Shown: positions 26,640 to 63,072, counted from the stretch's first letter. The stretch is DNA of 64,000 bases from an uncultured delta proteobacterium (GCA_963816145.1 CAWFJP010000030.1:192001-256000); one strand, 5' to 3'. The notes: a model not told the origin generated them from the sequence alone. Program-made: numbers and translations.

Positions 26640-27158
26640 ATGTTTTCCATGCCCATCGTCAACTTACTGGCTGAAGGCAGCAAACTTGCCGCAACGGGCA
26701 AACGCGTCAACGTCCTGTGGCAGCACGACGACTGTCTCGCCTTCGTCGCGCGCGGGCGAGAATACCGCAGCGAGTTCCATATCAATCCGAGCGACGAAAC
26801 CATGTACATGATCAAAGGCGAAATGCGCCTCCACTACCGCACGCCGGAAGGCAAAGAAGCTGTCGCGGTAATCGCCGAAGGCGCGATGATCTACACCCCC
26901 GCCGGCACACCGCACTCGCCGCGCTTCCCGCCCGACGCCTTCGCGCTTATTTCGGAACGAAAACGCCGCCCCGGCGAGATCGACAAGTTTCACTGGTATT
27001 GCCCGAAGTGCGACACGCTGCTGCACGAACAACAGTTCATCGTCGACGACTACGCCAAAGACCCGGTGTCGAAAGCCTATCGGCAATTTTTTGAAAGTTT
27101 GGAATTCAGAACCTGCAAACAATGCGGCGAAGTCATGCCGGCGCCACAAGCGCTATGA
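26640..27158 (+). CDS. nbaC: 3-hydroxyanthranilate 3,4-dioxygenase family
   Basis: R.EFHINPSDE, PHSPR, ERKR, rubredoxin-like CPKC...CKQC. Confidence 0.85.
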   Translation: MFSMPIVNLLAEGSKLAATGKRVNVLWQHDDCLAFVARGREYRSEFHINPSDETMYMIKGEMRLHYRTPEGKEAVAVIAEGAMIYTPAGTPHSPRFPPDAFALISERKRRPGEIDKFHWYCPKCDTLLHEQQFIVDDYAKDPVSKAYRQFFESLEFRTCKQCGEVMPAPQAL

Positions 27159-27218
27159 CTTCACATCTGGAGCATTGGGAACCAAACAAACAGACTCGAC
27201 GCATTTGTCCACATTGCG

Positions 27219-28202
27219 TTATTTCAATGTACGGGCGAGCTTTTGTGCGATGCTAAAATCAAACACTTGGTCGGGCAGCACCGGCTGTTTCGGCTTCACC
27301 CGCTCGGAAGCGTCCGCGATCATTTGGCGCTGAATATCTTCACTCACCGTGCCGTCGTCCAATAGCGCTGGGCCGGCAATATCATAGACGCGACTAGCGA
27401 TTTTGTCCGGGTCTTTCCCGATGTCCACCCACGGCCCCTTGAGAAACTCAATGGCGTACTTGCGATCGGTTTTGATCAGCCGCATCGCCTTCAACATCGC
27501 GCGCACCACCTTGGTCACCAGCTCGGGCTGCTCGGTCAACATCGCCTTGGTCGTTGCAAGTCCCCCCTGCACCGATCGATACACGTCAGCCGCAGAAACG
27601 AGCTTGCGAAACCCTTCGTCTTGCGCGGTAAACGTCAAGGGCATTTGCAGCGGCGCGGCATCGATCACTTTAGCCTTCAACGCGGTATAGGTAACGTGGC
27701 TGGGGCCAGTTGCAAGAATAGCGACGTCTTCAAGGCGTACGTTATGCGCAATAAGAATTCGGCGCGCGAGTATTTCCGCTAAGGATCCGACTCCGCCGGT
27801 GCCGATTTTCTTGCCTTTCAATTGCTGGACACTGGTAATGTTGGGCTGGACGATGAGGTCGAAAGACGGTTGGTCCGTGACTGCCAATATCACCCTGATG
27901 TCAGCGCCCCTGACAGCGGCGGCGACGGCCGATCCAGTTGCCGAAGCGAACTGCGTGCTGTTTCCCAGAGTGGCCTGTATGGTTTGGATCGCTTGCATCA
28001 CAATCAACTCTACATCGAGACCTTCCTCACGGAAAAAACCGCGCTCCTTGGCGACGAAATAGGGCATCGAAGTCGTGCTTCTCGCCGCCAAGCCCATGCG
28101 CATAGGGATTAGCTTGTCAGCACTCTCAGCCACACCGAGATTCTTAAGAAGGCATGACACGACGATGAAAGCGCCCACTAAGATTGGTCTTAGACTCATC
28201 AT
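27219..28202 (-). CDS. NMT1/SsuA-like substrate-binding protein
   Basis: AKERGFFREEGLDVELI, LKGKKIG, VFDFS; GGAGG RBS before ATG 28202. Confidence 0.85.
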   Translation of the reverse strand: MMSLRPILVGAFIVVSCLLKNLGVAESADKLIPMRMGLAARSTTSMPYFVAKERGFFREEGLDVELIVMQAIQTIQATLGNSTQFASATGSAVAAAVRGADIRVILAVTDQPSFDLIVQPNITSVQQLKGKKIGTGGVGSLAEILARRILIAHNVRLEDVAILATGPSHVTYTALKAKVIDAAPLQMPLTFTAQDEGFRKLVSAADVYRSVQGGLATTKAMLTEQPELVTKVVRAMLKAMRLIKTDRKYAIEFLKGPWVDIGKDPDKIASRVYDIAGPALLDDGTVSEDIQRQMIADASERVKPKQPVLPDQVFDFSIAQKLARTLK

Positions 28203-28346
28203 TGGATCCTCCGAAACTCTGTGCATCACCAAGCGACTTGCGGCCGAATCATGATGATTAGCCAACTTTTGCAAGTTTGAGTCAATGGGCTTTTAAAATC
28301 GGCGCTGCGAAATCATCCCTCGACAATGAGAATTTAGCCGCTCCTA

Positions 28347-28583
28347 CGCTTCCAGCCCAATGCCTTCGCCTTGATCTCAGAAAGAAAACGCCGCCCCGGC
28401 GAGGTCGACAAATTCCATTGGTACTGCCCGAACTGCGACACGCTCCTGCACGAAGAACAGTTCGTCGTCGACGACTACGCCACAGACCCGGTGTCAAAGG
28501 CGTACCAGCGATTCTTTGAGAGTTTAGAATTCAGAACCTGCAAGCAATGCGGCGAAATCATGCCGGCGCCGGATGCGCTTTGA
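28347..28583 (+). pseudogene. Orphan copy 1 of the nbaC 3' half
   Basis: RFQPNAFALISERKRRPGEVDKFHWYCPNCD...CKQCGEIMPAPDAL* matches about 26922-27158; no 5' half. Confidence 0.92.
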
Positions 28584-28653
28584 ATAGGACCCTAGAGAAG
28601 AATTCGCCGCTAGTCAGGATTAGGTCGATGGAGATATCAATTTAATCCTAGCA

Positions 28654-28743
28654 TCAACGAATCACCCGATCCGCTCGCACAAGCACGTTCGGCGGAATCG
28701 TCACACTGATCTGCTTGGCGGCCTTCAGATTGACCACGAGCTC
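28654..28743 (-). pseudogene. C-terminal 29-aa fragment of an ABC_sub_bind-family binding protein
   Basis: ELVVNLKAAKQISVTIPPNVLVRADRVIR*. Confidence 0.8.
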
Positions 28744-28949
28744 ACCTGCGACTGCCCGCTAACGGGCAGCGCAACGTCAAACATGGTGTCTACGACAACT
28801 GCGGCACGCCACCGCAGCTTGGGCAATGCTCCGAGTCAATATCGAACAACACGATTCCGACTTTGAGCCTTCGTCGAAAGGTATAGAGTGACAAAGATCG
28901 AGGTGCTAACGTGACGCCAGCACAAGTCTAGAAACCCACGGAGGCGCAC

Positions 28950-29468
28950 ATGTCCTTCCTTACTGACGAACAGAAAGACCTTGCGAACGAGATCGCCGCC
29001 CTACTGACCGAGCGAGGCGAGACGGTCTGTGTGGCGGAGTCCACCACTGGAGGCCTCGTGTCCGCGGCACTACTGTGGGTGGCCGGAGCGTCCAAGTACT
29101 ACGCCGGTGGCAGCGTGCTCTACACGCTTGTCTCGCGCACGGCGCTGGCGGGTGTGCCGGCATCAATGTTTGAGAACTACCGCGGCACCACGCCGGAGAT
29201 GATCACCGCTATCGCCGACGCCATGCGCCAGCGACTGGGCACCACCTGGTGCATCGCCGAATCCGGCCTCGCCGGCCCCACCCGCGGCCGATCCGGCCTG
29301 CCGCCCGGCCGCACGACGATCTGCGTCTCCGGCCCTGTAACGCGTGTCAACGTGCAGCAGACCGGCCTGCCGGACCGAGAGCCCAACATGATCGCCTTCA
29401 CGACTCTGACGCTACGCTATCTGCGGGACGCGATTAAAGAGGGAGCACTAGTGTCGAGAAATATGTGA
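28950..29468 (+). CDS. CinA/PncC family protein
   Basis: VAESTTGGLVSA.L...GAS.YY.GG..YT, AESGLAGP. Confidence 0.88.
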   Translation: MSFLTDEQKDLANEIAALLTERGETVCVAESTTGGLVSAALLWVAGASKYYAGGSVLYTLVSRTALAGVPASMFENYRGTTPEMITAIADAMRQRLGTTWCIAESGLAGPTRGRSGLPPGRTTICVSGPVTRVNVQQTGLPDREPNMIAFTTLTLRYLRDAIKEGALVSRNM

Positions 29469-29583
29469 TAGCGAGGGCCTTCTGCCATCGCTTCGAGTTC
29501 CCTCTCATGGATGCCCAACGACTCAACGCTCAGCCGCGAGCGGTGCGGGAGTTGACGAACGTAAAGCCGCAACTGTCACGCGC

Positions 29584-29829
29584 CACTCGCCGCGCTTCCC
29601 CCCCGACGCCTTCGCGTTAATTTCCGATCGCAAACGCCGCCCCGGCGAGATCGACAAGTTTCACTGGTATTGCCCGAAGTGCGACACGCTGCTGCACGAA
29701 CAACAGTTCATCGTCGACGACTACGCCAAAGACCCGGTGTCGAAGGCGTATCAGCGTTTCTTTGAGAGTTTAGATTTCAGAACCTGCAAACAGTGCGGCG
29801 AAGTCATGCCGGCGCCGGACGCGCTCTGA
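29584..29829 (+). pseudogene. Orphan copy 2 of the nbaC 3' half
   Basis: HSPRFPPDAFALISDRKRRPGEIDKFHWYCPKCD...MPAPDAL*; 29632-29744 identical to 26961-27073. Confidence 0.93.
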
Positions 29830-30138
29830 TTGCGTACGGGTGTTCGTTCTAGCTTGAAGGTTTGAGATTTGACACGTGAAGGTTCCAATCAATGGAAATT
29901 TTTGAGCAACTGAAACTGTTGGCACTACTCATTGCCGCATTTCCTAATCCTCCCGGGCAATGAATTGAAGTCTATTCCAGAATAGCCTCGACTCGATCCC
30001 AGCGCGACGACAATGACAGACATGTCGACGTGAACGATGACAATGTCACAATCATGCTCGAGAACAATCGCACCGCAATCTATCATAGAAGATCCGTCGC
30101 GGACAAATTTTACCGAAAATTCCGGCGGTGCCATGGAC

Positions 30139-30154
30139 TGGCATTCCTTGTGCA
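30139..30154 (+). promoter_or_regulatory. Possible sigma-54 promoter of the response regulator
   Basis: TGGCATTCCTTGTGCA, GG-N10-GC. Confidence 0.4.
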
Positions 30155-30167
30155 GTTCCTTTCTCTC

Positions 30168-30560
30168 ATGAGAAACATGGTTAACAAAGTATTGATCGTA
30201 GATAGTAACGATACCTTTCGGGGAACGCTCATGACCTTTATCGAGGGTTTGGGCCACCAAGTCTTCGAAGCCACTACAGGGCCAGAGGCGCTCGAAAAAG
30301 CCTCAAGCATTCATCCCAACTTGATCATGATGGACGTTCGCTTGCCGGGAATGAACGGCGATGAGGTCACCGCAAAATTGAAGTCGAATTCCGCCACACG
30401 AAACATACCAGTGGTGATAAACACCGGCTGGACCACGTCCTGTAACGTTGAAGACCGCATCCACCGCGCCCTCAATGCCGGGGCGGCGGAAATTATGTAC
30501 AAGCCAATCCAGATGCCGGAGCTTCGCGGCGTCCTGCGCAACTATTTATTAGCCTGCTAG
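30168..30560 (+). CDS. Single-domain response regulator (CheY-like)
   Basis: KVLIVD, LIMMDVRLPGMNG, IPVVINT, KPI; start 30168 or 30177. Confidence 0.85.
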   Translation: MRNMVNKVLIVDSNDTFRGTLMTFIEGLGHQVFEATTGPEALEKASSIHPNLIMMDVRLPGMNGDEVTAKLKSNSATRNIPVVINTGWTTSCNVEDRIHRALNAGAAEIMYKPIQMPELRGVLRNYLLAC

Positions 30561-30655
30561 ACCGCCAGATGGGTGAGCGCACCCGGCTGACAGATTATCG
30601 GTCCCAAGTCCTGCGCATTTACATCCGACCTTGAAACTGGTGAAACTTGAACGTA

Positions 30656-31567
30656 TTACCTCTGCATCTCCATAATGAAATCTCTGAGTCCCGCTTCCAC
30701 ATCAAACTTCGACACGTAGCCCAATTCACTCCGCGCCCTGGTAATGTCCAGAGCTGGCCGCGGGCGTGACGATACTTCGCGCGTGAAGCGCACAGCGCCG
30801 AGAACTTTCTTCAACCCCAGCTGAATGTCGGCGATCGTCGCCGCTACGCCGGTGCCGAGATTGTAGGCTTGGTGCGGCAGATTCGCGGCATGCGTCATTA
30901 AGTTTAGTCCTTGGGCGATATCTTTAACGTAAACGAAGTCGTTGGCGTCGGCGATGCCCGGCCCCATGGGCGCCGGTTTGCCGGCGAGCGCGGCTTGCAG
31001 CATCGCGTACATGTCCATGCCGACGTTGCCGCCACCGGTGTAGGGGCCGTAGCCGTAGACCGACGCGAAGCGCGGCAGGGCGAGTTCGAACTTGTACGTC
31101 GCCGCGTAAGCGGTCAGCACTTCCTCGCACGCCGCCTTTCCTGCTTGATAGACCCGCGCGCCGCCGTCGCGCCACGCCTCTTCGTGAATCGGCACCGGCG
31201 GATTGCGCAGATCGTAAACGCCTTGACTGCTGGCATGGATCAATCGGCGCACTCCGGTGAGCCGCACCGCCTCGGCAACGTTCAATGTCCCAATCAAGTT
31301 CACCTGAAAGCCGAAGTACGGCGTCCGATTGCCTTGCAGCCCGGCGGTGTGAATCACCACCTCGGCGCGCGTGCGCTGCATCGCCTCGATCAACGCCGGC
31401 AGCTCCCGAATATCGCCGCGAATCATCGGCAACTCTCGTCCAAGAACTTTGCGCAAATAATCCAAGTTGGGCTGCAAGTCGAAAAACGTCACCTCATCAC
31501 CGCGCTCCGTCAACTCCTTGGCCGTGTAGCAGCCGATCAAACCACATCCGGTAATCAAGACTCGCAT
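30656..31567 (-). CDS. NAD-dependent epimerase/dehydratase
   Basis: MRVLITGCGLIG, ASS..VY, YxxxK, DFVYVKD. Confidence 0.88.
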   Translation of the reverse strand: MRVLITGCGLIGCYTAKELTERGDEVTFFDLQPNLDYLRKVLGRELPMIRGDIRELPALIEAMQRTRAEVVIHTAGLQGNRTPYFGFQVNLIGTLNVAEAVRLTGVRRLIHASSQGVYDLRNPPVPIHEEAWRDGGARVYQAGKAACEEVLTAYAATYKFELALPRFASVYGYGPYTGGGNVGMDMYAMLQAALAGKPAPMGPGIADANDFVYVKDIAQGLNLMTHAANLPHQAYNLGTGVAATIADIQLGLKKVLGAVRFTREVSSRPRPALDITRARSELGYVSKFDVEAGLRDFIMEMQR

Positions 31568-31593
31568 GACAGTCCCCTCATCAAAATCCCGGA

Positions 31594-31617
31594 AGGGCGA
31601 CCGCCGGTCGCCCCTAC
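31594..31617 (-). repeat. GTAG-type REP hairpin
   Basis: Minus strand gtaggggcgaccggcggtcgccct. Confidence 0.65.
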
Positions 31618-31629
31618 GCTCCTTGAGAA

Positions 31630-31678
31630 CCCCCACCTCTCTCCTCCCCCGCGTCGCGGGGGAGGAGAGAGGTGGGGG
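31630..31678. repeat. Perfect 24-bp inverted repeat (REP-like), followed by a 9-mer GGAAC tandem to 31723
   Basis: cccccacctctctcctcccccgcg-t-cgcgggggaggagagaggtggggg. Confidence 0.75.
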
Positions 31679-31727
31679 ATTGAACGATTTGGAACATCTG
31701 GAACCTCTGGAACAACTGGAACGAGCT

Positions 31728-32714
31728 TTAGATATTGAGTTCTTTCGACCGATCATAATCATGCCGCCCACCCGCCGCCGCACCGAGCGGGAAGATCCGG
31801 TCGATCGCCGCCAGATCGTCTGGCGTTAACGAAACATCCGCCGCCGCGGCGTTGGCTTCGAGATTGGCGATCTTGTACGTGCCGGGGATCGGCACGAAGA
31901 AGTCGCCTTGATGGAGAATCCACGCCAGCGCCAATTGCGCCACCGTGCATTTCTTAGCTCTGGCAATCCCTTCCAATTGCTTGAGCAAGCCTACGTTATG
32001 CTGAAAATTCTCAGCGTGAAAGCGCGGTCCGCGCCGCTTGGCTTCCTTCTCGCCCAGGTCCGCGAAGTCGTTCCATTTGCCGCTCAAGAATCCTCGCCCC
32101 AGAGCATAGTAAGCGACATAACCAATACCCAACTCCCGGCAAACCGGAATCGTGTTTCGTTCGTAATCGCGCGTCCACAAAGAATACTCGCTCTGCACGG
32201 CAGCAATCGGATGGATCGCGTTGGCGCGGCGCAACGTCTCCGGTCCGGCTTCGCTCAAACCGAGATGGCGCACTTTCCCTTGCTCGACGAGACGCTTCAT
32301 CGCGCCGACGGTTTCTTCGATGGTCACTTTGGGATCGACGCGGTGAAGGTAATAAAGATCGATATAGTCGGTTTGCAGCCGGCGCAGGGAATTGTCGCAT
32401 GCCCAGGCCACGTACTCGGGCCGGCCTTCGACTTCGCGTCCCTCCGCCCAGGGCTGGCCGCGCAGGTTGCCGAACTTGCTGGTCAGGACGACTTCGCCGC
32501 GCCGGCCTTTCAAGACTTTGGCGAGGATCTCTTCGTTGTTGCCGTTGTTATGGTCGGCGGTGTCGATGAAATTCATGCCGATGTCGATGGCCCGGTGCAG
32601 CACGGCGATCGCCTGTTGCTCGTCGGCGTCGCTGAGCTTGCCCTGAAACGGCGGACAGCCGTAGCCGATGGCGGAGACTTTCAAACCCTCCTTGCCGAGA
32701 AAACGGTATTGCAT
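31728..32714 (-). CDS. Aldo/keto reductase
   Basis: LG..GLKVSAIGYG, DTAD, SLRRL.TDYIDLYYLHRVD, GLSEA, QSEYSLW, PIPGT. Confidence 0.93.
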   Translation of the reverse strand: MQYRFLGKEGLKVSAIGYGCPPFQGKLSDADEQQAIAVLHRAIDIGMNFIDTADHNNGNNEEILAKVLKGRRGEVVLTSKFGNLRGQPWAEGREVEGRPEYVAWACDNSLRRLQTDYIDLYYLHRVDPKVTIEETVGAMKRLVEQGKVRHLGLSEAGPETLRRANAIHPIAAVQSEYSLWTRDYERNTIPVCRELGIGYVAYYALGRGFLSGKWNDFADLGEKEAKRRGPRFHAENFQHNVGLLKQLEGIARAKKCTVAQLALAWILHQGDFFVPIPGTYKIANLEANAAAADVSLTPDDLAAIDRIFPLGAAAGGRHDYDRSKELNI

Positions 32715-32859
32715 GTGAAACCCCTCCCGGCGAAATAATGGTCCACAACGGCATAGCGATTCAAGTTGCAATAACGACTATTTGTTTGCTAACAATCGCG
32801 CCAGTCCGGATAGTCGCTTAGCGCCGAATTTATCGGAAGTGGTTTTCATCAGGAAGTGA

Positions 32860-33064
32860 CCATGAGCTGACACTCGTCTACAGAATGTGAAATTGGAGGA
32901 TTTCCCTCGACATGATTCTCTTTTCGAATCGTCATTCCCGCGCAGGCGGGGAATCCAGGTTTGTTTTCCGCCAAATTAGCCTGGATACCCGCTTCCGCGG
33001 GTATGACGGAGCTGAGCGGTTTCTTCGTTCGGGAGATCATCTTCACATGCCTATTTTCGATGGA
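32860..33064. mobile_element. About 205-bp MITE-like element, copy A, with internal GTCATTCCCGC REP hairpin (32931-33007)
   Basis: Colinear similarity to 55528-55738 (ccatg..acactcgtctacag ... gtcattcccgcgcaggc.ggaatccagg...gcctggata..cgc....gcgggtatgac ... tattttcga.gga). Confidence 0.65.
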
Positions 33065-33065
33065 G

Positions 33066-33127
33066 AGCACGAAGGGTTCAGATATCAAATTTCCGAACTT
33101 CGTGATCTTCGTGTCCTTCGTGGTGAA
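33066..33127. repeat. 9-mer CACGAAG palindrome
   Basis: agcacgaaggg...tccgaacttcgtgatcttcgtgtccttcgtggtgaa. Confidence 0.75.
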
Positions 33128-33152
33128 CAAGTCTTTCCCATAAGGAGTTGCC

Positions 33153-34178
33153 ATGACGGCAAAGTTGTTCGCAACGTTCGGTGCAATCGCATTGCTCTTC
33201 GGGGTTTCGTCTCAGCCATCCGCCCAGGACTCGTTCTATAAAGGCAAAACCGTACGCATCATGGTCGGCGGCTCGGCCGGCGGCGGCTACGACACCTACA
33301 CGCGCACCATCGCACGGCATCTCGGCAAACATATTCCCGGCAATCCCAGCTTCGTCGTCGAAAACATGACCGGCGCTGGCAGTTTGATCGCCGCTAATTA
33401 CACCTACAAGATCGCCAAGCCGGACGGACTCACCATCGGCCACTTCATCGGCGGCCTGATGCTGCAACAGGTCATGGGCAAACCGGGAATAGAGTTCGAG
33501 GGACAAAAATTCGAATACCTGGGCGTGCCGGCACAGGATTCCCTGGTGCTCGGCGTCACCAAGGCCGCCGGCATAACCAGCGTCGAACAATGGCTCGCGA
33601 CCAGGACGACGCTAAAATTTGGCGGTGTCGGCCCTGGCGCGGGCACCGACGATGTCCCCAAAGTCGTGCGCGCCACCGTCGGTGTGCCGATTCAACTGAT
33701 CTCCGGTTACAAAGGCACCGCCGACATCCGCCTGGCGATGGCCGCCGGAGAACTCCACGGCGTAACCAATTCATGGGAGTCGTATAAATCGGGATGGAGC
33801 AAAGAAATCGATTCCGGTTCGGTGCTCCTGCTGCTGCAGACACTGCCCCAGCGGCATCCCGAACTACCCAACGTTCCGGCGATCCTTGATTTCGTTAAGA
33901 ACGACGATGATCGCAAACTGGTGCAGACCGGCATCTTCGACTACAGCGCCATCGCCCGCCCCTACGCATTGCCACCCAAAACTCCTAAAGATCGAGTCCA
34001 GCTACTGCGCAAAGGACTAACCGACACCTACAAGGATCCGGAGTTTATCGCCGATGCGCGGCGCGCCCGTCTCGACATGAACCCGATCAGCGGAGAGGAG
34101 TTGGAGAAAGTCGTAGCGCGGGTTTATCAACTCGACAAAGCGCTGGTCGAAAAGCTTAAGGACATACTGCTCAAATAA
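33153..34178 (+). CDS. Bug/TctC tripartite tricarboxylate transporter substrate-binding protein
   Basis: FYKGKTVRI.VG.SAGGGYD, HIPGNP..VVENM.GAG, KPDGLT, GYKG, LPNVP. Confidence 0.88.
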   Translation: MTAKLFATFGAIALLFGVSSQPSAQDSFYKGKTVRIMVGGSAGGGYDTYTRTIARHLGKHIPGNPSFVVENMTGAGSLIAANYTYKIAKPDGLTIGHFIGGLMLQQVMGKPGIEFEGQKFEYLGVPAQDSLVLGVTKAAGITSVEQWLATRTTLKFGGVGPGAGTDDVPKVVRATVGVPIQLISGYKGTADIRLAMAAGELHGVTNSWESYKSGWSKEIDSGSVLLLLQTLPQRHPELPNVPAILDFVKNDDDRKLVQTGIFDYSAIARPYALPPKTPKDRVQLLRKGLTDTYKDPEFIADARRARLDMNPISGEELEKVVARVYQLDKALVEKLKDILLK

Positions 34179-34217
34179 AGCGGTGACAATTTCATTGCCA
34201 TTCCCAGCTGAACAGCC

Positions 34218-34244
34218 GTAGGGGGCGGGTTTTAAACCCGCCCT
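34218..34244 (+). repeat. GTAG-type REP hairpin
   Basis: gtagggggcgggttttaaacccgccct. Confidence 0.7.
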
Positions 34245-34278
34245 GACAAAATGCGCGAATACTCAAAAGCAAACCACC

Positions 34279-35001
34279 ATGGCTAACGCCAACGAATATC
34301 AAGGCCGCATCGCCGTGGTAACCGGCGGTAGCGGCGGCATCGGCGGCGCCATCGCCAAGCGGCTTGCCGCCGAAGGCGCCGTCGTCCATATACTCGATGT
34401 CAAACCAGGAAGCGTCGACGGTAGATTCCATGCGCTCGATGTCGGCGACGAAGCTTCGGTCAACCACGTCTTCGACGCCATTGGCGCCGAGCATGGCGCC
34501 ATCGATTATCTAATCTGCTGCGCCGGCATCTACCGGCCGCAACCGTTTCTCGAGCTGAGCCTCGACGCCTGGCGCCAGACGCTGGATGTCAATTTGACCG
34601 GCATGTTTCTCTCTTGCCGCGCCGCTTTGAAATACATGACGCCGCATAAGTTCGGCCGCATCGTCCTCTTCTCTTCTATGGCCGCGCGCACGGGGGGCAA
34701 GAACGTCGCCCACTACGCCGCATCCAAGGGCGGCATTCTGGGCCTAGCCCGCGCTCTCGCCGTCGAAGTCGCCGCCGATAATATCCGCGTCAACGCGATC
34801 TCGCCGGTCATCACCGATACGCCAATGCCGCGCGCAGTGGTGTCGAAAGAATATTTACTCTCGCGCAAGGATAAGATTCCGCTAGGCCGCATCGGCGACG
34901 TCCAAGACATGGTCGAAGCCTGCTTGTTTCTGCTCAGCGAGGACAGCGCTTACATGACCGGCCAGGACCTGCGCGTGAATGGAGGCTCGACGCTATGGTA
35001 A
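34279..35001 (+). CDS. SDR oxidoreductase
   Basis: TGGSGGIG, YAASK, IRVNAISP. Confidence 0.92.
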   Translation: MANANEYQGRIAVVTGGSGGIGGAIAKRLAAEGAVVHILDVKPGSVDGRFHALDVGDEASVNHVFDAIGAEHGAIDYLICCAGIYRPQPFLELSLDAWRQTLDVNLTGMFLSCRAALKYMTPHKFGRIVLFSSMAARTGGKNVAHYAASKGGILGLARALAVEVAADNIRVNAISPVITDTPMPRAVVSKEYLLSRKDKIPLGRIGDVQDMVEACLFLLSEDSAYMTGQDLRVNGGSTLW

Positions 35002-35756
35002 CGGCGGCGCACTCGCGTGTCACCGTCATCACTGGCGGCGGCAGCGGCTTGGGTCGAGCCGCGGCGGTTCGCTTAGCGCGCAAAGGCGACCAGGTCTGCA
35101 TCTGCGATCTGAAAGCCGACGCGGCTAACGACACCGCCGAGCTGATTCGATCCTCGGGCGGCAGCGTATTTACCGGTGTCGTCGACGTGCGCGAGCAATC
35201 TCAAGTGAACGCGTGGATCGCCAAGGTGATCGACGAGTTCGGCAAGATCGACTGTTTGTTCAGCAATGCCGGCGTCAACGCTCGCGCCTTGGTCGCCAAC
35301 ATGACGCTGGCGCAATGGTCGCTGCTCATCGATACCCATGTCACGGGAACTTTCAATTTCTGCCAGGCGGTGCTGCGCCACATGGTGGCGCGACAATCCG
35401 GCGCCATCGTCATCACCTCTTCGGACTTCGCCATCATCGGCGTGGCCAACGCGGCGAACTATTGCGCCGCCAAAACCGCTCTCTATTCGCTGACCAAATC
35501 CCTGGCTTTGGAATTCGCGCCGCATATTCGCGTCAACGCCATCGGTCCCGGCCCCATCGACACGCCGCTCCTACGCGCCAACCGCACCCCGGAAGAATTC
35601 GAAACCGCCCGGCGCGCCTTCGAGAGCCGCTTGCCAATGAAAAGATTAGGTCAGCCGGAAGAAATCGCCGCCGTTGTGGATTTCCTGTTAAGCGACCGCG
35701 CGTCGTTTATCACCGGCCAACTGCTTCAGCCCAACGGCGGCCAAGTAATGTGGTAA
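34995..35756 (+). CDS. SDR oxidoreductase
   Basis: TGGGSGLG, SNAG, YCAAK; overlaps upstream SDR. Confidence 0.92.
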   Translation: MVTAAHSRVTVITGGGSGLGRAAAVRLARKGDQVCICDLKADAANDTAELIRSSGGSVFTGVVDVREQSQVNAWIAKVIDEFGKIDCLFSNAGVNARALVANMTLAQWSLLIDTHVTGTFNFCQAVLRHMVARQSGAIVITSSDFAIIGVANAANYCAAKTALYSLTKSLALEFAPHIRVNAIGPGPIDTPLLRANRTPEEFETARRAFESRLPMKRLGQPEEIAAVVDFLLSDRASFITGQLLQPNGGQVMW

Positions 35757-35763
35757 AAAACAA

Positions 35764-35845
35764 GATGAAGCTCGAAGGATGAAGGATGAATTATCCGGAT
35801 TAGGAATCGACGGCTTTCACTTCATCCTTCTGCCTTCATCCTTCA
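35764..35845. repeat. 7-mer palindrome (TGAAGGA/TCCTTCA) with central TCCGGA, between convergent genes
   Basis: gatgaagctcgaaggatgaaggatgaa-ttatccggat...ttcacttcatccttctgccttcatccttca. Confidence 0.75.
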
Positions 35846-35848
35846 TAC

Positions 35849-37315: not shown

Positions 37316-37418
37316 GGTTGGCTCCTTTGAGTTCAGAATTGCTTGTTTGTGGAAAAACTTATCACATCGGAATCGCCAAAGGGAATTCTCGGGCAGGCTG
37401 GAACTCCCTCGCCCGGAT

Positions 37419-37473
37419 TCCGAAAACGTTTTGAACGGAGTGAAGCGGTTGAACGACTTGAACGTTTTGAACG
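37419..37473. repeat. 9-mer TTGAACG tandem preceded by TCCGAA
   Basis: tccgaaaacgttttgaacggagtgaagcggttgaacgacttgaacgttttgaacg; inverted partial copies at about 38328-38452. Confidence 0.65.
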
Positions 37474-37477
37474 CGAC

Positions 37478-38305
37478 TCAGTGCCGATCCACCCATTCGC
37501 GAATGATTCGGTTGGTCTCCTCCGGCTTTTGCCAGAAAAAGCCGTGGCCACAGCCCTCGATGACTCTAAATTCCGCACCCTTGATGTTGTCGCGCAGATG
37601 TTCGGTAGTGGCGACATGATTGCCGGTGTCTGCGTCGACTTTATCCTCGCTGCCAACCAGGCAGAGCGTCGGCGCTGTGATCTTGGGCAAATGCTCGCCG
37701 GTCTCATGACGGTTGCGCGCAATGACATGCTCCAGGTAAGGTTCGAGCTTCGGCGCGTTATCCCAGAAGGCCGCGAATAATTTTGACAGCACTTCGGGAT
37801 GGGCCTTAACGAACGCCTCAGGAAAAAAGAACTTACTCTGAAAGTGATGCCACATATGTTCTTTGTAGCCGCGCGTGATCAAGCTCTCGGTGGCATTGAC
37901 GGTCAGCCCGCGCGGATAGTTGGGCAATCCCATGAAGCCTGAACCGGAAGCCGCTTGGATCATGCTGCGCACCCGCGTCGGATGATCAATGGCCATCCAC
38001 TGGCAAACCCGCCCACCCATGGAGTGGCCGATAATATGCGCCGGCTCTTTGACGCCAATAGCGTCTAGTAAATTGATCGCATCGTCAGAGAACTGCCTCG
38101 TCGAGTATGGTCCCTTCGGCGCATCGGATTTGCCGACACCGCGATGATCGTAGACGATCACCCGATACCGGTCGACCAACGCCGGCACCTGCTTCAACTT
38201 CCACGGCTCTCCCGGCCATCCCGTGCCCGAGACAAACAGAAACGGCACGCCGTTGCCGAAAGATTCGTAGTGCAACTTTACTGCGCCTGTCTGTGCGTAG
38301 GGCAT
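37478..38305 (-). CDS. Alpha/beta fold hydrolase
   Basis: YDHRGVGKS, GHSMGG, HGFFWQ. Confidence 0.9.
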   Translation of the reverse strand: MPYAQTGAVKLHYESFGNGVPFLFVSGTGWPGEPWKLKQVPALVDRYRVIVYDHRGVGKSDAPKGPYSTRQFSDDAINLLDAIGVKEPAHIIGHSMGGRVCQWMAIDHPTRVRSMIQAASGSGFMGLPNYPRGLTVNATESLITRGYKEHMWHHFQSKFFFPEAFVKAHPEVLSKLFAAFWDNAPKLEPYLEHVIARNRHETGEHLPKITAPTLCLVGSEDKVDADTGNHVATTEHLRDNIKGAEFRVIEGCGHGFFWQKPEETNRIIREWVDRH

Positions 38306-54203: not shown

Positions 54204-54221
54204 CAAAGCGAACCGGATCTC

Positions 54222-54436
54222 GCCACGAAGGACACGAAGAGCACGAAGTTCGGAAGAAGAACTTTCCGAGACCTTCGTGTCCTTCGTGCCTTCGAGGCTG
54301 TGTCGTAATGCGCGAACGCCCCACATCTGTCATCCCGAGCGCAGCGAGGGATCTCGTGTTTTCAGCCACATACGAAGAAGATATTTCTCGGCTTCACCTC
54401 GAAATGACAGTTGCGACACAGTCTGTTCGTGGTGGA
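54222..54436. repeat. 9-mer CACGAAG palindrome interrupted by a MITE
   Basis: gccacgaaggacacgaagagcacgaag-ttcgga..ttccgag-accttcgtgtccttcgtgccttcg[MITE]ttcgtggtg. Confidence 0.75.
54295..54424. mobile_element. 130-bp MITE with 14-bp imperfect TIRs and an internal GTCATCCCGAGC hairpin
   Basis: aggctgtgtcgtaa ... ttgcgacacagtct (12/14 complementary), flanked by TTCG at 54291 and 54426. Confidence 0.7.
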
Positions 54437-55480: not shown

Positions 55481-55527
55481 TAACGTCAGCAACTGCCCCC
55501 TCAAGATATTTTGCTTTCACCACGAAG

Positions 55528-55738
55528 TATCCATGGGCTTACACTCGTCTACAGGTTATGGAATTAGCGGGACTTCCCTACCACAGGCTTCTCTTTTCGA
55601 TTTGTCATTCCCGCGCAGGCAGGAATCCAGGTTTGTTCTCCGCCCAATTAGCCTGGATAGCCGCTTTCGCGGGTATGACGGAATCTAGGAGATCTCTTCT
55701 TTTCACAGAACATCCCCCCCATAGGTATTTTCGAAGGA
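55528..55738. mobile_element. About 210-bp MITE-like element, copy B, inserted in a CACGAAG palindrome (55516-55809)
   Basis: Colinear with 32860-33064; ttcaccacgaag|element|cgcacgaaggac. Confidence 0.65.
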
Positions 55739-55877
55739 CGCACGAAGGACATGAAGGGTTCGGAGAGTTTTAGTTCTAACCTTCTTGCTCTTCGTGTTGT
55801 TCGAGGTGATTAAAAATTGCTCAGCCAACGGCAGAAGGCTGATTGCATCTCTCAAAACCCCAGATTATAACCCGTCT

Positions 55878-57913: not shown

Positions 57914-58066
57914 CTACTTCAGCCAAGACTGTGCAAGAAGCCGGAAGTTTTTAGGTGATTTGCGGAAAAATCATCGATGAACCTGCCGAGCGCGCGCCTT
58001 TCGCGGGGGAAATCTCTTTTGCGTCGATATAACTCAATTGGCCCTGAATCGGGTCTTGGCGGACAA
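57914..58066 (-). pseudogene. Decayed orphan copy of the 3' end of SBP 59327..60361
   Basis: VRQDPIQGQLSYIDAKE vs VRSEPIQSQLSYLDEKE; nt atcgatgaac-ctgccgagcgcgcgcc..ggggaaatctcttttgcgtcga..ctcaattggccctgaatcgg aligns to about 59390-59470. Confidence 0.8.
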
Positions 58067-58431
58067 GCCTACTTGCGACCTTTTCATGGATGCCACCGAC
58101 CGCTCGTAGCACACCGTTCCCAAGATAAAGCTTCACGTCACCGTCCCGAAGCTCTGCGGCCTCGCCTTTACCTGTAGAAGCGCCGGCTGGAGTTGTAACT
58201 CCCGCAACTAGATCGTGATCGAAAATGACTTCTGTCTGGACTTGGGTACGCCGCCGGAGTCGAGAGCCTCTCGCGCCGCAAGTTTTTCACTTTTCATTGT
58301 CATTAACTCCGGTTCCTTTCAGGTAAAGAGGGGCTCAGAAACTATTTCTTCGAGGGGAAATTCTGTTTCACTGACGTTTACCAATGCCCTAGAATCAGCA
58401 TCCTGTTTCCGACTTGATAAGATCCGGGTCC

Positions 58432-58770
58432 TTAGTGTTTCCCGCTTCGGTAAAAAAGTATCTGAACCTTCTCGACAGTGGCCATCCCGTCCAAGATCGC
58501 GCCGTCGATGATGGGAAGGAAAGCATCGATCTTTTCGAGAGTATCGACAATTTCAACCACGATCGGAAGATCGGTCGACAGATCGAGGATTTTAGCCGTA
58601 CGCACGCGACTCCGCGCCCCAAAGCCTTCTACTCCGCGCAATACCGTGGCTCCCGCCAAGCCATTCTCCCTTGCCGTCCGAACGATCCATTCGTACAACA
58701 GCATGCCGGCATGTCGATCGCTTTCGCCGATAAATATTCGCAGCAGAGAACCTTCACTCGGAAGTGTCAT
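58432..58770 (-). CDS. DUF190 (PII-like) protein
   Basis: LLRIFIGESD, LYEWIV, GLAGATVLRG.EGFG, LSTDLP.VVEIVD; usual crcB partner. Confidence 0.92.
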   Translation of the reverse strand: MTLPSEGSLLRIFIGESDRHAGMLLYEWIVRTARENGLAGATVLRGVEGFGARSRVRTAKILDLSTDLPIVVEIVDTLEKIDAFLPIIDGAILDGMATVEKVQILFYRSGKH

Positions 58771-58772
58771 GG

Positions 58773-59156
58773 TCAACCTCCTATGACATGGGCTATTATA
58801 TTACCGACCCACACCGCCGCTAGGCCGAGCACCAACTGGAGACCGATATTGAGCAACGCAGCGGCACTTTGAGTGTCGCGGGCCAAGGAGAACGTTTCGA
58901 GCGCAAAAGACGAAAACGTGGTAAAGCCGCCGAGGATTCCAACAAAGATAAATAGACGGGCTTCCGACGTGAAAGCCAACCGACTCTCCGCCAGGCCCGC
59001 CAAAAATCCGATCACCAGGCAGCCCAACCCATTGACTGCGAGCGTACCATATGGGAACCACGGATTATCGAGCACCCGATAAACCCAAGTGCTGAGACTG
59101 TAACGCAGGACTCCGCCGATTAGACTGCCCACGCCGACTATAACAATTGGCAACAT
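58773..59156 (-). CDS. crcB: Fluoride efflux channel
   Basis: GGVLRY, FPYGTLAVN..GC..IG, GILGGFTTFSSF. Confidence 0.96.
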   Translation of the reverse strand: MLPIVIVGVGSLIGGVLRYSLSTWVYRVLDNPWFPYGTLAVNGLGCLVIGFLAGLAESRLAFTSEARLFIFVGILGGFTTFSSFALETFSLARDTQSAAALLNIGLQLVLGLAAVWVGNIIAHVIGG

Positions 59157-59326: not shown

Positions 59327-60361
59327 TTACTTTGTCAGTCCCAGCCCCTGCAAAAATCCCGAGATCTTTAGATAGTCCGCAAACGAATTATCGATGAACT
59401 CTGCCGGGTGCGCGTCTTTGGCGCGGGGAAACTCTTTTTCGTCGAGGTAGCTCAACTGGCTCTGAATCGGCTCGCTGCGCACAGCGAGAGCATTGTCCCA
59501 GTAGGGCGAGAATTGTTCGTAGGTGCCGTCGATGATTTTGGCATCGTCGCTGTCGGTGTATTTAGCGATCGCTTTTTTCGCTATAGCCGGACTTTGTTTC
59601 GCTAACACCGTCGCTTCGGCAACGGCTTGGAGAAAAGCGTAGAGCGCATTGGGATAAGCTTTGATAGTCTTTTCCGTGGTGCCGTAAGCCAGATGAAATC
59701 CCGGCACATTGGCCTGGGCGATATCGATCAGCAGACTCAGTCCGGCGTCGCGCGCTTTCAGCGTGTTCGGCGCCGACAAGGTCCCAGCCGCGGTGTTACC
59801 GTTGATCACCGCGGTAAGGATCGCCGGAATGGTTTGCAGATAGATGAAGCTCACGTCCTTTTCCGAAATCACCGCGGTCTTCTTGAGCGCTTCGCGGGTC
59901 GCTATTTCCGTCGATGTTTTGGGCGTCGTCACCGCGACGGTTTTGCCCTTGAGGTCGGCCAGCGATTTAACCCCCTTGCCACCCCAAAGTTGAAAGACAA
60001 AGCGTTGCAGCGTGCCGCCGATGTATTTCGCCGGCACGCCTTGTAAGCGCGCGTTGACCAACTCCGGGCCGGTGGAAATCACATCCAACTCGCCGGCTAT
60101 CAGTGCTTGATGCGCGACCTGTGAGTTGAGAATTTTCAAAGTCGCATCGAGGCCATGTTTTTTGAACAGCCCCGCTTCCTGCGCCAGCCAGAGCGGCGTG
60201 AACGCGCCGCTCGCTTGGGTGTATGACAGCGTGAAATTGCTTTTCTCCGGTTTGCCGCCGAGCTGGGCGAGACTGAGCGCCGGGAAGGACGCGATCAAGA
60301 ACAAAACGAATGACAATGCGTCGATCACACTGCGACGATGGCTGCGATCTGACAATAACAT
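59327..60361 (-). CDS. NMT1/SsuA-like substrate-binding protein
   Basis: Paralog of 3092..4099 (GKPEKS, SGAFTP.W, AGTLSAPNT, DGTY..F.PYW). Confidence 0.87.
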   Translation of the reverse strand: MLLSDRSHRRSVIDALSFVLFLIASFPALSLAQLGGKPEKSNFTLSYTQASGAFTPLWLAQEAGLFKKHGLDATLKILNSQVAHQALIAGELDVISTGPELVNARLQGVPAKYIGGTLQRFVFQLWGGKGVKSLADLKGKTVAVTTPKTSTEIATREALKKTAVISEKDVSFIYLQTIPAILTAVINGNTAAGTLSAPNTLKARDAGLSLLIDIAQANVPGFHLAYGTTEKTIKAYPNALYAFLQAVAEATVLAKQSPAIAKKAIAKYTDSDDAKIIDGTYEQFSPYWDNALAVRSEPIQSQLSYLDEKEFPRAKDAHPAEFIDNSFADYLKISGFLQGLGLTK

Positions 60362-60902: not shown

Positions 60903-60992
60903 GTCTGCGCTCGAATCGATCCGCCGATTAGCTGGCAGTGCGCGCTAAAGCGAGATAACTATTATTTTCGTCCCAGCGATCGGCGACGCACC

Positions 60993-62282
60993 TTGGTGAA
61001 GCTCAACGACTTAAGAAAGCGCATCGCCGGCCTCTATTATGGGTGGCGCATGATCGGCGTCGTCTCGGCGCTGCGCATCCTCGGCGGCGGCCTGCATCAA
61101 TACGGCTTTACGGTTTTCTTTCTGCCGGTCACTCAGGACCTCGGCCTCACTCGCGCTTCCACCGCGCTCGCCTTTTCTCTGGCGCGGGCCGAGGGTTCGC
61201 TGACCGCGCCCATCGTCGGCTACTTGCTCGACCGCTATGGGCCGAAGCCGCTCATGCTCGCCGCCGCTGGATTTGCCGGCGTCGGCTATATTCTATTTTC
61301 GTTCGTAACCGATTACACGACTTTCTTGATCGTCTATTTGGGCGTGATCTCTCTCGCCTTCAATGCCGGCTTCGTCCATGCGCCCACGGTGGTCGCCAAC
61401 AGTTGGTTTATCGCCCTGCGCGCCCGCGCCATGACCGTCGTCAGCGCCGCTGTGCCGGTTGGCGGCGCGTTGATCACGCCCCTGCTGGCCATTGCAGTGC
61501 AGAATCTCGGCTGGCGCTGGGCGGCGCTGCTCGCCGGCGTGCTCTTTCTCGTCGCGGGTCTGCCATTGTGCCTGGGCATTCACCGCTCCCCTGAAAGCAT
61601 CGGCATGCAGCCGGACGGCGCGCCGCTCCAGTCCACAACGAACGACGGCAATGTAGACGAAAAACAGACGGCGCACGGCGCTGGTCCCGATGTCACCGCG
61701 CGGGAAGCGTTTCGCTCCCCGATCTTCTGGAATCTGATCTGCTCGATGACCTGCCGCTCGGTCGCGTTCACGACCGTGACGACTCATTTCATTCCGATGA
61801 TGGTCTGGAAAGGCATGAGTCAGACCGAAGCTTCGGTGCTGCTCGCCGGATTCGCGCTGATCAATCTGCCGATTCACTTTCTGCTCGGCTGGATCGCGGA
61901 CTTCGTCAACAAGCCCAAGCTGGTCACCATCTGCCTGTTCCTAGGTGTCGTCGCAGTCTTGCCGATGTTGTGGAGCAACTCGCTTTGGGCGTTGTGGTTC
62001 TTCACCGGACTCTACAGCGTGCTTGACGCGTCGATCCCGGTTTTTTGGGCTTCGGTGGGAGACTTCTTCGGCCGCAAATCCTTCGGCACAATCCGCGGCA
62101 ACATGAATCTCTTCTACACCTGGGGCTCAATCCTCGGCCCTTTCCTCGCCGGCGCGATCTACGATCAGACCCAGAGCTACGCTCTTGTCTTCACCGGCAT
62201 CACCGTATCGCTCGTCATCTCCACCGCCATGACGGCGCTCTTGATCAAACCGTGGGCGAAACTTGGAAATAGAGTTGGATGA
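60993..62282 (+). CDS. MFS transporter
   Basis: YYGW, GYLLDRYGPK, GWIAD, DFFGRKSFGTIRG, GP.LAG.IYD.TQSY. Confidence 0.9.
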   Translation: MVKLNDLRKRIAGLYYGWRMIGVVSALRILGGGLHQYGFTVFFLPVTQDLGLTRASTALAFSLARAEGSLTAPIVGYLLDRYGPKPLMLAAAGFAGVGYILFSFVTDYTTFLIVYLGVISLAFNAGFVHAPTVVANSWFIALRARAMTVVSAAVPVGGALITPLLAIAVQNLGWRWAALLAGVLFLVAGLPLCLGIHRSPESIGMQPDGAPLQSTTNDGNVDEKQTAHGAGPDVTAREAFRSPIFWNLICSMTCRSVAFTTVTTHFIPMMVWKGMSQTEASVLLAGFALINLPIHFLLGWIADFVNKPKLVTICLFLGVVAVLPMLWSNSLWALWFFTGLYSVLDASIPVFWASVGDFFGRKSFGTIRGNMNLFYTWGSILGPFLAGAIYDQTQSYALVFTGITVSLVISTAMTALLIKPWAKLGNRVG

Positions 62283-62391
62283 CCATATTTCTTCCCTTTG
62301 CGAGCGCGCCGTCGGCATGTATGCTAAGGGGAAGGAAGGGAAACGCCCCGTTGTATGCAATGACGCTGGCTGTTCCGAGGTAAGGTAAACC

Positions 62392-62670
62392 GTGGCCGCC
62401 GCCCCGATCGTCGACTTTATACTCACCGACCACGCAATCCGCGAGCTGGCAAGGCGGGGCATGGATAAACAAGACTTAGACGGCGTGCTAAAAAATCCGG
62501 GCCAGCGTTTGGACGTGCGGCCGGGTCGTGTCGTGGTGCAGTCCAAAACTCAACAGGATGGAACTGAATATTTGCTGAGGGTCTTTGTCGATATCGACCG
62601 TAACCCAGCCGAGATAGTGACGGCTTACCGGACGAGCAAAGTTACGAAATATTGGAGGGATCAGCCATGA
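62392..62670 (+). CDS. DUF4258 family (RelE-like putative toxin)
   Basis: LTDHA...L.RRG, LLRVFVD......IVTAYRTSK..KYW. Confidence 0.78.
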   Translation: MAAAPIVDFILTDHAIRELARRGMDKQDLDGVLKNPGQRLDVRPGRVVVQSKTQQDGTEYLLRVFVDIDRNPAEIVTAYRTSKVTKYWRDQP

Positions 62671-62867
62671 AAGTTTTCTACGATCCGCATACAGACACGC
62701 TGAACGTAATCCTGAAGGACAACGTAGCCGTTCACGAAAGCGACGAGGATAAGCCTGGCATTATTCTCGACTACGACAGGGAAGGTAATCTAATCTCACT
62801 AGAGATTCTCGACGCCTCGAAGCGTGTCACTGATACCCGTAAGGTGGATTTTCAACTGGCTGAATGA
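62667..62867 (+). CDS. DUF2283 family (putative antitoxin)
   Basis: MKV.YD..TD.L.V.L, ESDE.KPGIILDYD..GNL..LEILDAS; ATGA overlap. Confidence 0.85.
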   Translation: MKVFYDPHTDTLNVILKDNVAVHESDEDKPGIILDYDREGNLISLEILDASKRVTDTRKVDFQLAE

Positions 62868-62870
62868 CAC

Positions 62871-63072
62871 ATCCTTCGGCACGATCCGCGGCAACATGAA
62901 TCTCTTCTACACCTGAGGCGCCATCCTCGGCCCTTTCCTCGCCGGCGCGATCTACGATCAGACCCAGAGCTACGCTCTTGTCTTCACAGGGATCACGATA
63001 TCGCTATTGATCTCGACGGCGATGACAGCGCTGCTGATCAAGCCGTGGGCAAGACTTGGAACGTCAGCTTAG
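62871..63072 (+). pseudogene. Orphan copy of the 3' end of MFS 60993..62282
   Basis: Matches about 62078-62268; TGG>TGA at 62914; ends ..KPWARLGTSA*. Confidence 0.93.

Follow-up and report, generated by a model that had tools for sequence, protein, structure and literature searches.

Integrase-driven islands at the 3' ends of tRNA and protein genes bring with them a copy of the gene end that restores the target, and the old end is displaced as a direct repeat. Strings of same-strand, start-less 3' fragments have also been described at rhs loci, where they were explained by successive insertions, each pushing the previous end downstream; the authors proposed that a shared segment mediates homologous recombination at these loci, with exchange limited to related sequences (Jackson et al. 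2009, PMC2935791). The effector-immunity modules of type VI secretion systems (T6SS) are reported to undergo sequential displacement by homology-facilitated illegitimate recombination (Kirchberger et al. 2017, PMC5361080), and the same kind of recombination was invoked for the 'dimorphic loci' of E. coli (Touzain et al. 2010, PMC2884548). Insertion with long target duplication, finally, concerns inserts that measure a few kb, lack mobility genes and lie between direct repeats of tens to hundreds of bp; both repeats align to a single copy in the genome that lacks the insert, and some overlap the 3' end of a gene (Furuta, Abe & Kobayashi 2010, PMC2853133). As far as the parts of these four papers used here go, each treats particular locus types, and no search was made for a published genome-wide census. 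Here we analysed a window of 64,000 nucleotides (positions 192001-256000 of the 621-kb contig C30) from the genome of an uncultured, widespread soil and wetland bacterium (G000; 7.82 Mb in 31 contigs, estimated completeness 99.5%, estimated contamination 6.7%). In this window an nbaC-like gene for 3-hydroxyanthranilate 3,4-dioxygenase and other ordinary genes are followed by unrelated genes (hereafter cargo) and then by displaced partial copies of themselves (hereafter orphans). We put at roughly 60% the probability that such structures arose by sequential displacement of gene ends through host homologous recombination with diverged allelic DNA, acting by one-sided homology or through a circular intermediate and followed by gene conversion and decay.

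The original prediction, made from the sequence of the window, had listed five cases of a gene followed by cargo and an orphan copy of the gene's own 3' end, two of them at nbaC. Using the five genes as tblastn queries and comparing the window with itself to find local copies, we obtained three solid cases, namely orphans A and B of nbaC and the orphan of the major facilitator superfamily (MFS) transporter gene, and at both genes the self-comparison bore out that the copies lie on the same strand, lack a start and derive from the 3' end. The amidohydrolase copy, by contrast, turned out to be internal and that of the substrate-binding protein (SBP) gene weak (Table 1). The two cases at nbaC are two orphans of a single gene and do not include a second nbaC: the open reading frame (ORF) at 28950-29468 has the same length as nbaC, but it matches the Pfam CinA domain and belongs to the cargo. 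The repeated tail within nbaC comprises its final ~250 nt (26907-27158), of which the two start-less copies cover the final 78-83 codons, and nbaC and both orphans each end at their own TGA, with the similarity ceasing immediately after it. Orphan A is 86% identical to nbaC at both the nucleotide and the amino acid level (dN/dS = 0.11), and orphan B is 92% identical in nucleotides and 93% in amino acids (dN/dS = 0.13). These orphans are not paralogue remnants, since no nbaC paralogue in the genome comes closer than 42% identity. A 16-nt match to the end of nbaC, lying 43 nt before orphan A, was judged to be a chance match.

Table 1. Coordinates of the intact genes, cargo and displaced copies in the window (nt, nucleotide identity; aa, amino acid identity).
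Feature	Position	Strand	Evidence or comparison
nbaC-like 3-hydroxyanthranilate 3,4-dioxygenase gene, intact	26640-27158	+	Pfam 3-HAO, E=1.2e-20
Cargo 1: NMT1-type substrate-binding protein gene	27219-28274	-	Pfam NMT1
Orphan A: start-less nbaC codons 95-172, own stop, no internal stop	28347-28583	+	
Orphan of the end of a TctC-like family gene, last ~30 codons (90-nt stump)	28653-28744	-	
Cargo 2: CinA-domain gene, with no other close CinA in the genome	28950-29468	+	Pfam CinA
Orphan B: start-less nbaC codons 90-172, in the ancestral position before the response regulator	29578-29829	+	
Response-regulator gene, native downstream neighbour	30030-30560	+	Pfam Response_reg
Amidohydrolase_2 gene, intact	40746-41813	+	Pfam
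Cargo: AMP-binding / carrier-protein gene	41918-43789	-	Pfam AMP-binding, PP-binding
Amidohydrolase internal fragment, codons ~219-249	43939-44040	+	92% nt over 99 bp
Possible copy of SBP codons 275-341, decayed and frameshifted (weak)	57922-58106	-	
Genes between the SBP gene and its putative copy: crcB and DUF190	58432-59156	-	Pfam
NMT1-type SBP gene, intact	59327-60361	-	Pfam
MFS transporter gene, intact	60993-62282	+	Pfam MFS_1
Cargo: DUF4258 and DUF2283 gene pair, also in relative G012	62392-62867	+	Pfam; 74% and 90% aa to locus L025
Orphan MFS tail, codons ~362-425	62868-63061	+	89% nt, dN/dS 0.10

The divergence between gene and orphan is synonymous-biased at MFS as it is at nbaC, and in this respect the prediction stood. 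It had further described a long identical tract followed by a tail that differs mostly at synonymous positions, and this second part fits less well: the 112-nt tract of orphan B that is identical to nbaC has diverged sequence on both sides and more plausibly represents a patch of gene conversion between the repeats, and the initial ~115 nt of the MFS orphan, which are nearly identical to the gene, can be read as a patch of the same origin. The claim that both tails were recently parts of functional alleles agrees with the low dN/dS values, whereas two of the copies already have stop codons. These are a premature TGA at 62914 (a TGG-to-TGA change) in the MFS orphan and an in-frame TAG, one of 6 differences over 29 codons, in the amidohydrolase fragment, which is cut off on its 3' side beside a minus-strand gene. 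At the putative SBP copy, tblastn gives only a pair of short, collinear matches that lie in different frames (39% and 46% amino acid identity, E ~2e-4 in a search of the window only), and the copy is absent from the genome-wide blastx at E ≤ 1e-4; since that search missed it, we do not count it as a firm case and keep it as a possible one.

When this arrangement is set beside the described systems, the integrase islands differ from it in that here there is no integrase, no fixed crossover core, a wide range of unrelated targets and cargo as small as 20-800 bp. The likeness to rhs lies in an intact gene followed by same-strand, start-less copies of its own 3' part. However, according to the sections of the rhs report considered here, the repeat at those loci is a conserved core before a variable toxic tip and the new material becomes part of the protein, whereas in our case the repeat is the true gene end down to the stop codon, the protein remains the same in kind and the new material consists of whole neighbour genes; also unlike rhs, the affected genes serve ordinary metabolism, transport or housekeeping, and there is a mirror-image class of displaced 5' ends. 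With the T6SS modules, as presented in the parts of that paper referred to above, our loci share a conserved upstream anchor, a non-homologous module, an old downstream element that is kept, arrays built by repeats and the lack of an integrase; yet displacement in T6SS leaves a functional orphan immunity gene that is under selection at one competitive type of locus, while here it leaves a non-functional stump at dozens of unrelated genes. The repeats reported by Furuta and colleagues are, in the portion of their paper used here, mostly near-identical (417/423 and 388/397) and treated as target duplication, with restriction-modification genes as cargo, whereas ours carry unlike cargo and differ at 8-21% of positions with a synonymous bias, pointing to two alleles. 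Homology-facilitated illegitimate recombination, as conveyed by papers that cite the original work (de Vries & Wackernagel 2002; Prudhomme et al. 2002; Meier & Wackernagel 2003), combines a homologous anchor with an illegitimate second junction to take up foreign DNA, as would our loci, and was proposed as a major source of small variable segments; the products described in those citing papers are insertions with deletion of recipient DNA, and a duplicated gene end is not mentioned among them. The process itself is not new, then, and matches the published displacement and homology-facilitated models. The differences lie in the hosts (ordinary single-copy or family genes), in the cargo (complete, unrelated genes that range from a pair resembling toxin and antitoxin to transporters), in the mirror-image heads and in the genome-wide count, and the value of the results is in this census and in the cross-species stacks rather than in a new mechanism.

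Relatives of the same genus were fetched for nbaC (n = 8), MFS (n = 7) and the thymidylate synthase gene thyX (n = 5). The gene nbaC sits in the same neighbourhood in all eight relatives, and the empty alleles that had been foreseen do exist: in relative G002 nbaC directly abuts, across 174 bp, the response-regulator gene that follows orphan B in G000, and this intergenic DNA aligns with the DNA after orphan B. In G008 nbaC lies 100 bp from an epimerase gene. One of the eight relatives, G019, has an insert of its own, in which nbaC is followed by 1.45 kb containing a minus-strand AAA_14/DUF4143 ATPase gene and then by its own nbaC tail. The gene is moreover an interspecies mosaic, the head of the G019 copy being 93% identical to G004 and its tail 91% identical to G003; judging from this mosaicism and from the apparent gene-conversion tracts, recombination inside these genes is ongoing. 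As a separate observation, the nbaC homologue of G019 (locus L012, 3479-4049) reads through only with frame changes, which indicates either a pseudogene or indel errors in the assembly. MFS orphans are present in three of the seven relatives (two tails in G045, one in G017 and two pieces in the unpublished genome G005), with none in G003, G019, G004 or G018, and the 63 bp that follow the MFS orphan of the window match the sequence downstream of the full-length MFS gene in G017. The ancestral flank was recovered in this way at two loci only, nbaC and MFS.

Stacking and recurrence are also seen at thyX, which lies outside the window. In G000 (contig C12, 113020-116048) this gene is followed by a 377-aa cargo gene and a tail, while in G004 (locus L050) the order is thyX, 0.7 kb, a first tail, the cargo gene shared with G000, a second tail and a third remnant of 45 bp. 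Orphans of thyX occur in three of the five relatives, and hence in four of six genomes including G000, with one tail each in G007 and G043 and none in G003 or G019 within the stretch fetched. Behind the shared cargo gene the orphan begins ~75 nt later in G000 than in G004. These different starts lean towards independent joins, and the recurrence of orphans at the same genes leans towards reusable units. The thyX gene itself is long, encoding 555 aa with the Thy1 domain at positions 330-521. With regard to the origin of the cargo, the CinA segment of the window (28812-29519) is 97%, 96%, 93% and 89% identical to sequences of G002, G018, G014 and G021, respectively, where it lies in other contexts, and the SBP gene of cargo 1 has homologues of 78-85% nucleotide identity in five relatives.

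The architecture is not an artefact of this assembly record, because contigs from three other studies bridge its unique junctions. At least half of the sampled words of 26400-30400 are held by 20 of the 24 listed public runs (18 studies), and Logan contigs of four runs (X1-X4, from four studies) were aligned to 26400-44400. The nbaC tail, cargo and orphan A are joined by contigs of X1 (27044-28840) and X4 (27044-28718), with 2 and 1 differing letters, respectively; a contig of X2 (28741-29658) runs from before CinA into orphan B, and contigs of X1 (29715-31033) and X4 (29715-30659) run from orphan B into the response-regulator gene. The interior of the amidohydrolase gene, the AMP-ligase cargo and the fragment are connected in X2 (41475-44028) and X4 (41397-43995). 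In total, orphan A is bridged by contigs of X1, X2 and X4 and the amidohydrolase fragment by contigs of X2, X3 and X4, the contigs from the three other studies showing 0-10 differing letters per unique junction; for the junction into orphan B a bridge exists in a single run, and the other unique junctions were seen independently. No single contig of the four runs spans a gene together with all its orphans, the breaks falling inside the repeated tails, as is usual for short-read graphs. In the wetland run X3 there is next to no contig cover at 27602-28202 and 28804-29404, with nbaC and the response regulator covered; this gap could possibly mark an empty allele, but no contig joins across it and it is evidence neither way. 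Several contig joints begin at 31666-31667, within a 49-nt near-perfect palindrome (31630-31678) located between convergent epimerase and aldo-keto reductase genes.

The polarity of the copies extends over the genome. Our census covers G000 only, and it rests on crude gene calls (longest non-overlapping ORFs scored by codon usage, giving 7458 genes and 86% coding) rather than on those of a standard gene finder, so that starts may be miscalled. At the nucleotide level, self-megablast of the genome gave 521 same-contig repeat pairs no more than 6 kb apart, 485 direct and 36 inverted; among the 340 pairs left after filtering (identity ≥ 78%, length ≥ 60 bp, distance ≤ 6 kb), 79 link a full gene to a fragment, corresponding to 66 distinct fragment loci. 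On the same strand as the gene, 32 of these loci are 3' ends lying downstream and 13 are 5' ends lying upstream, the remainder being 6 5' ends downstream, 5 3' ends upstream, 8 internal pieces and 2 inverted ones. At the protein level, DNA outside genes of at least 150 aa was compared by blastx with the genome's own proteins, a fragment being defined as less than 55% of a protein of at least 200 aa (a size filter that excludes nbaC, with 172 aa) and as local when its best full-length match lies within 6 kb. This yielded 884 fragments, 78 of which have as their best match a full gene within 6 kb, and 76 of the 78 are on the same strand as that gene (2 inverted). The same-strand fragments downstream comprise 35 tails, 7 heads and 6 internal pieces and those upstream 19 heads, 5 tails and 4 internal pieces, the association between part and side being significant (Fisher P = 8.3e-7). 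At 70% amino acid identity or more it is sharper still (29 tails, 1 head and 1 internal piece downstream; 2 tails, 11 heads and 2 internal pieces upstream), while the 806 fragments whose best match is far away lack such a bias (208 tails, 318 heads, 280 internal). Downstream, where the prediction had placed them, tails dominate; the mirror-image heads upstream were unforeseen.

The orphans are short, 51 of 71 covering less than 20% of the gene and only two more than 50%, and the repeats measure 60-460 bp with 79-96% identity genome-wide. The cargo spans from 20 bp to 5.4 kb and holds 0-6 genes in either orientation. Approximately 33 host genes have downstream tails, and the 20 that were scanned against Pfam belong to at least 14 unrelated families, including NMT1 binding proteins (5), amidohydrolases (2), a DsbA-like protein, GST, arylmalonate decarboxylase, ThyX, an Ldh_2 dehydrogenase, adenylate cyclase, shikimate dehydrogenase, a caspase-domain protein, an MFS transporter and others. 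It is rare for cargo to be enclosed by two full-length local duplicates: there are seven such pairs at 70% amino acid identity or more, four of which stem from one 5-kb tandem duplication. That segmental duplication comprises four genes over 5.2 kb at 97.6% identity (G000 contig C10, 3345-8507 and 8878-14041).

An ungapped alignment was possible for 42 of the 54 polar cases, and a dN/dS value was obtained for 40 of these. The pooled dN/dS is 0.26 and the median 0.23 (n = 40; below 0.35 in 29 of 40), figures that detection by protein-based blastx biases downward since it favours conserved sequence; the median proportion of synonymous differences (pS) is 0.34, and a premature stop occurs in three of the 42 ungapped orphans. 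Both ends thus passed the greater part of their separate history inside working genes, as alleles of different strains or species do, because dN/dS is low and stops are few, while a copy drifting in place would be expected at this pS to show a dN/dS of ~0.5 and many stops.

Signatures of a recombinase were sought at several levels. No integrase or transposase domain was found by Pfam in 58 ORFs of the window, in agreement with the original prediction, serine recombinases and transposases having been sought only there, and none of the 11 genomic matches to tyrosine recombinase (PF00589) is on contig C30. The ends of the three cargo segments examined show no inverted or short direct repeats, and no termini of transposon, insertion sequence or miniature inverted-repeat transposable element type nor any target-site duplication were found there. 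As for integron features, there is no integrase on the contig and there are no inverted repeats of 14 nt or more at the cargo ends (attC covariance models were not run). Inspection by eye of 36 orphan 5' junctions, with no formal motif search, revealed no shared sequence. On the 3' side, 20 of 36 high-scoring segment pairs stop no more than 7 nt from the stop codon, another 9 fall short of it by 9-49 nt and the other 7 extend 28-85 nt past it. ComEC is encoded in the genome, but it is nearly universal in control genomes and so says little.

Host-recombination displacement is favoured because it accommodates the polarity and stacking of the orphans, their allelic divergence, the ancestral flank, the empty sites in relatives and the fact that no recombinase signature was found. 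Under this hypothesis, DNA of a diverged relative of the same genus (~8-20% different in nucleotides) would enter the cell carrying an allele of a conserved gene beside other neighbours, and a single crossover would take place inside the conserved gene. The other end of the incoming piece would find no homology and be joined illegitimately slightly upstream of the stop codon, as in homology-facilitated illegitimate recombination; alternatively, a circle holding only the gene end and the cargo might be inserted by a single crossover. Either way the gene would remain intact with an imported end, the cargo would come next and the resident end would be stranded before the native neighbour. Anchoring on the opposite side would produce the mirror image, with the old 5' head upstream, and repeated rounds would stack orphans, the oldest being farthest from the gene. 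Later on, the repeats would swap patches by gene conversion and slowly decay. The direction of transfer, the identity of the imported tail and the nature of the second junction are the parts of this scenario that we infer.

Besides the downward bias of dN/dS noted above, several observations weigh against this scenario. In eight of the 19 heads the 'cargo' measures only 0-250 bp, and these heads may be start-codon miscalls or intragenic repeats. The head and tail affinities of nbaC to the eight relatives are within noise on 237 nt, and our attempt to name the foreign nbaC tail from the head and tail identities failed, being confounded by this noise and by gene conversion. The thyX tails resemble each other within a genome more than they resemble their positional counterparts elsewhere, and concerted evolution (gene conversion) therefore blurs their history. 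Orphan 5' ends cluster (nbaC nt 258, 267 and 283; at MFS within ~50-100 nt in four genomes), which is unexpected for a random illegitimate join. No Ku gene was found in this 99.5%-complete genome, leaving no obvious enzyme for circularising a linear piece. Cargo 2 is itself a mosaic of a TctC-family tail fragment (75-88% identical in nucleotides to the 3' ends of more than 40 paralogues and 83-90% in amino acids by blastx, the full TctC-like genes sitting elsewhere in G000, in arrays on contigs C3, C8 and C11) and the CinA segment, and therefore at least some junctions come from further illegitimate events. Lastly, the original prediction had cargo arriving with an allelic tail that restores the gene and pushes the old tail downstream, for which the empty site in G002, the flank of the MFS orphan, the dN/dS values, the lack of a close paralogue and the polarity speak; a donor in which an nbaC piece accompanies the cargo was, however, not found in the relatives examined, at none of five loci for the SBP homologue and none of four for the CinA homologue (within ~1.5 kb, in a small sample limited to loci already fetched), and this absence counts against the scenario because both of its variants predict such donors.

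The main rival supposes that an imported full allele with its cargo first produced the order gene, cargo, gene, and that deletions within the redundant interior later stripped the downstream copy of its head or the upstream copy of its tail, since outward deletions would hit native neighbours. It predicts the same polarity and synonymous bias, some three independent full-length diverged pairs with cargo between them do exist (at 70% amino acid identity or more), and larger remnants are found, such as one of 252 of 374 codons on contig C4. We nonetheless regard it as unlikely: against those three or so full duplicates stand 40 polar orphans at the same identity, about ten to one, the remnants are skewed towards short lengths as described above, and orphans that lie 20-300 bp behind the gene would need very precise deletions. 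A copying of the resident tail in situ when the cargo was inserted, be it by tandem duplication, template switching or insertion with long target duplication, would account equally for downstream tails and upstream heads, which random tandem duplications likewise yield, and inserts with long target duplications and no mobility genes are on record (PMC2853133, in the parts used here). Neutral drift from identity would nevertheless have produced the higher dN/dS together with many stops and indels at the pS observed; furthermore, the similarity breaks off at the stop codon, where a duplicated flank would have prolonged it, and no case in the window has repeats more than 99% identical, so that in-situ duplication appears very improbable. 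Even less credit can be given to a strain-chimeric metagenome assembly. The record resembles a metagenome-assembled genome, its estimated contamination is 6.7% and short-read contigs break inside the repeats, but the bridging contigs of other studies speak against a chimera and independently assembled relatives show the same type of structure.

Two further explanations invoke mobile units. According to one of them, circles made of a tail and its cargo excise without an integrase and re-insert at the same gene in other cells, the tails serving as portable attachment sites and the cassettes perpetuating themselves. The same genes have orphans with differing cargo in several species, the thyX cargo with a tail behind it is common to G000 and G004, the gene-conversion tracts indicate that the repeats recombine, and a circular-intermediate model has been published for rhs (PMC2935791, in the sections considered here). 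No circle or excised form was seen, however, the CinA and SBP cargo occur in relatives without flanking nbaC tails, and the shift of ~75 nt in the thyX junction is not what an unchanged cassette would give, since it would keep its junction; we consider these cassettes rather improbable. The other explanation places a site-specific recombinase in trans, with the gene 3' end as attachment (att) site and integrase-less satellites mobilised from elsewhere. An intact gene, an insert and a displaced partial copy are the classical att outcome, the clustering of orphan 5' ends within tens of nt at nbaC and MFS would suit it, and there are the 11 tyrosine-recombinase matches elsewhere in the genome. 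It has little to recommend it when confronted with the diversity of host families among the 20 scanned, which share no junction sequence, with junction positions that vary between events in one gene, with repeats that are long and diverged instead of a short exact core, with the lack of an integrase in any cargo checked or on the contig, and with the mirror-image heads, which it does not anticipate. A more speculative extension of host recombination, to which we give only a small chance, is that displaced ends may be working integrase-free attachment sites, RecA-made circles of tail and cargo re-entering the same gene in other species and building integron-like arrays behind dozens of core genes (nbaC, thyX, MFS, SBPs). 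If true, this would rank among the main ways in which a lineage poor in classical mobile elements acquires genes.

Displacement of gene ends by host recombination would leave a countable footprint of integrase-free gene gain, amounting here to ~50 polar scars in 7.8 Mb, and its signature (tails downstream, heads upstream, same strand, synonymous-biased divergence) could be looked for and counted in any genome. Should the census hold more widely, it would quantify how much accessory DNA enters via one-sided homology at conserved genes as compared with dedicated mobile elements, a question that has so far been argued mostly from toxin loci and laboratory transformation. For annotation, such scars would explain many short 'hypothetical' ORFs and pseudogene stumps beside intact genes.

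Other features of the genome were noted in passing. In the TctC-like family (genes of ~984 nt) the final ~90 nt are 75-88% identical in nucleotides among more than 40 paralogues and are kept across the genus, the genes being far more diverged outside this end, and several orphan copies of the end exist (G000 contig C3 at 804-832 kb, C8 and C11, and 28653-28744 in the window). Isolated 5' head fragments whose full proteins are encoded on other contigs are located at 51393-51605 (plus strand, aa 1-71 at 70% identity) and 58053-58256 (minus strand, aa 15-81 at 47%). A 231-aa ORF at 1855-2825 (minus strand) matches the N6_Mtase profile over no more than its initial 72 positions and has a further fragment adjacent to it; it looks like the remnant of a DNA methylase gene. 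Finally, a family of intergenic repeats is represented in the window at 32844-33136, 5931-6010, 54220-54295 (inverted) and 55515-55809; its unit of ~70 nt (33064-33136) has ~150-200 copies in the genome and its form of ~280 nt ~25-40, with a metagenome contig depth of 139-270 compared with ~8 around it.

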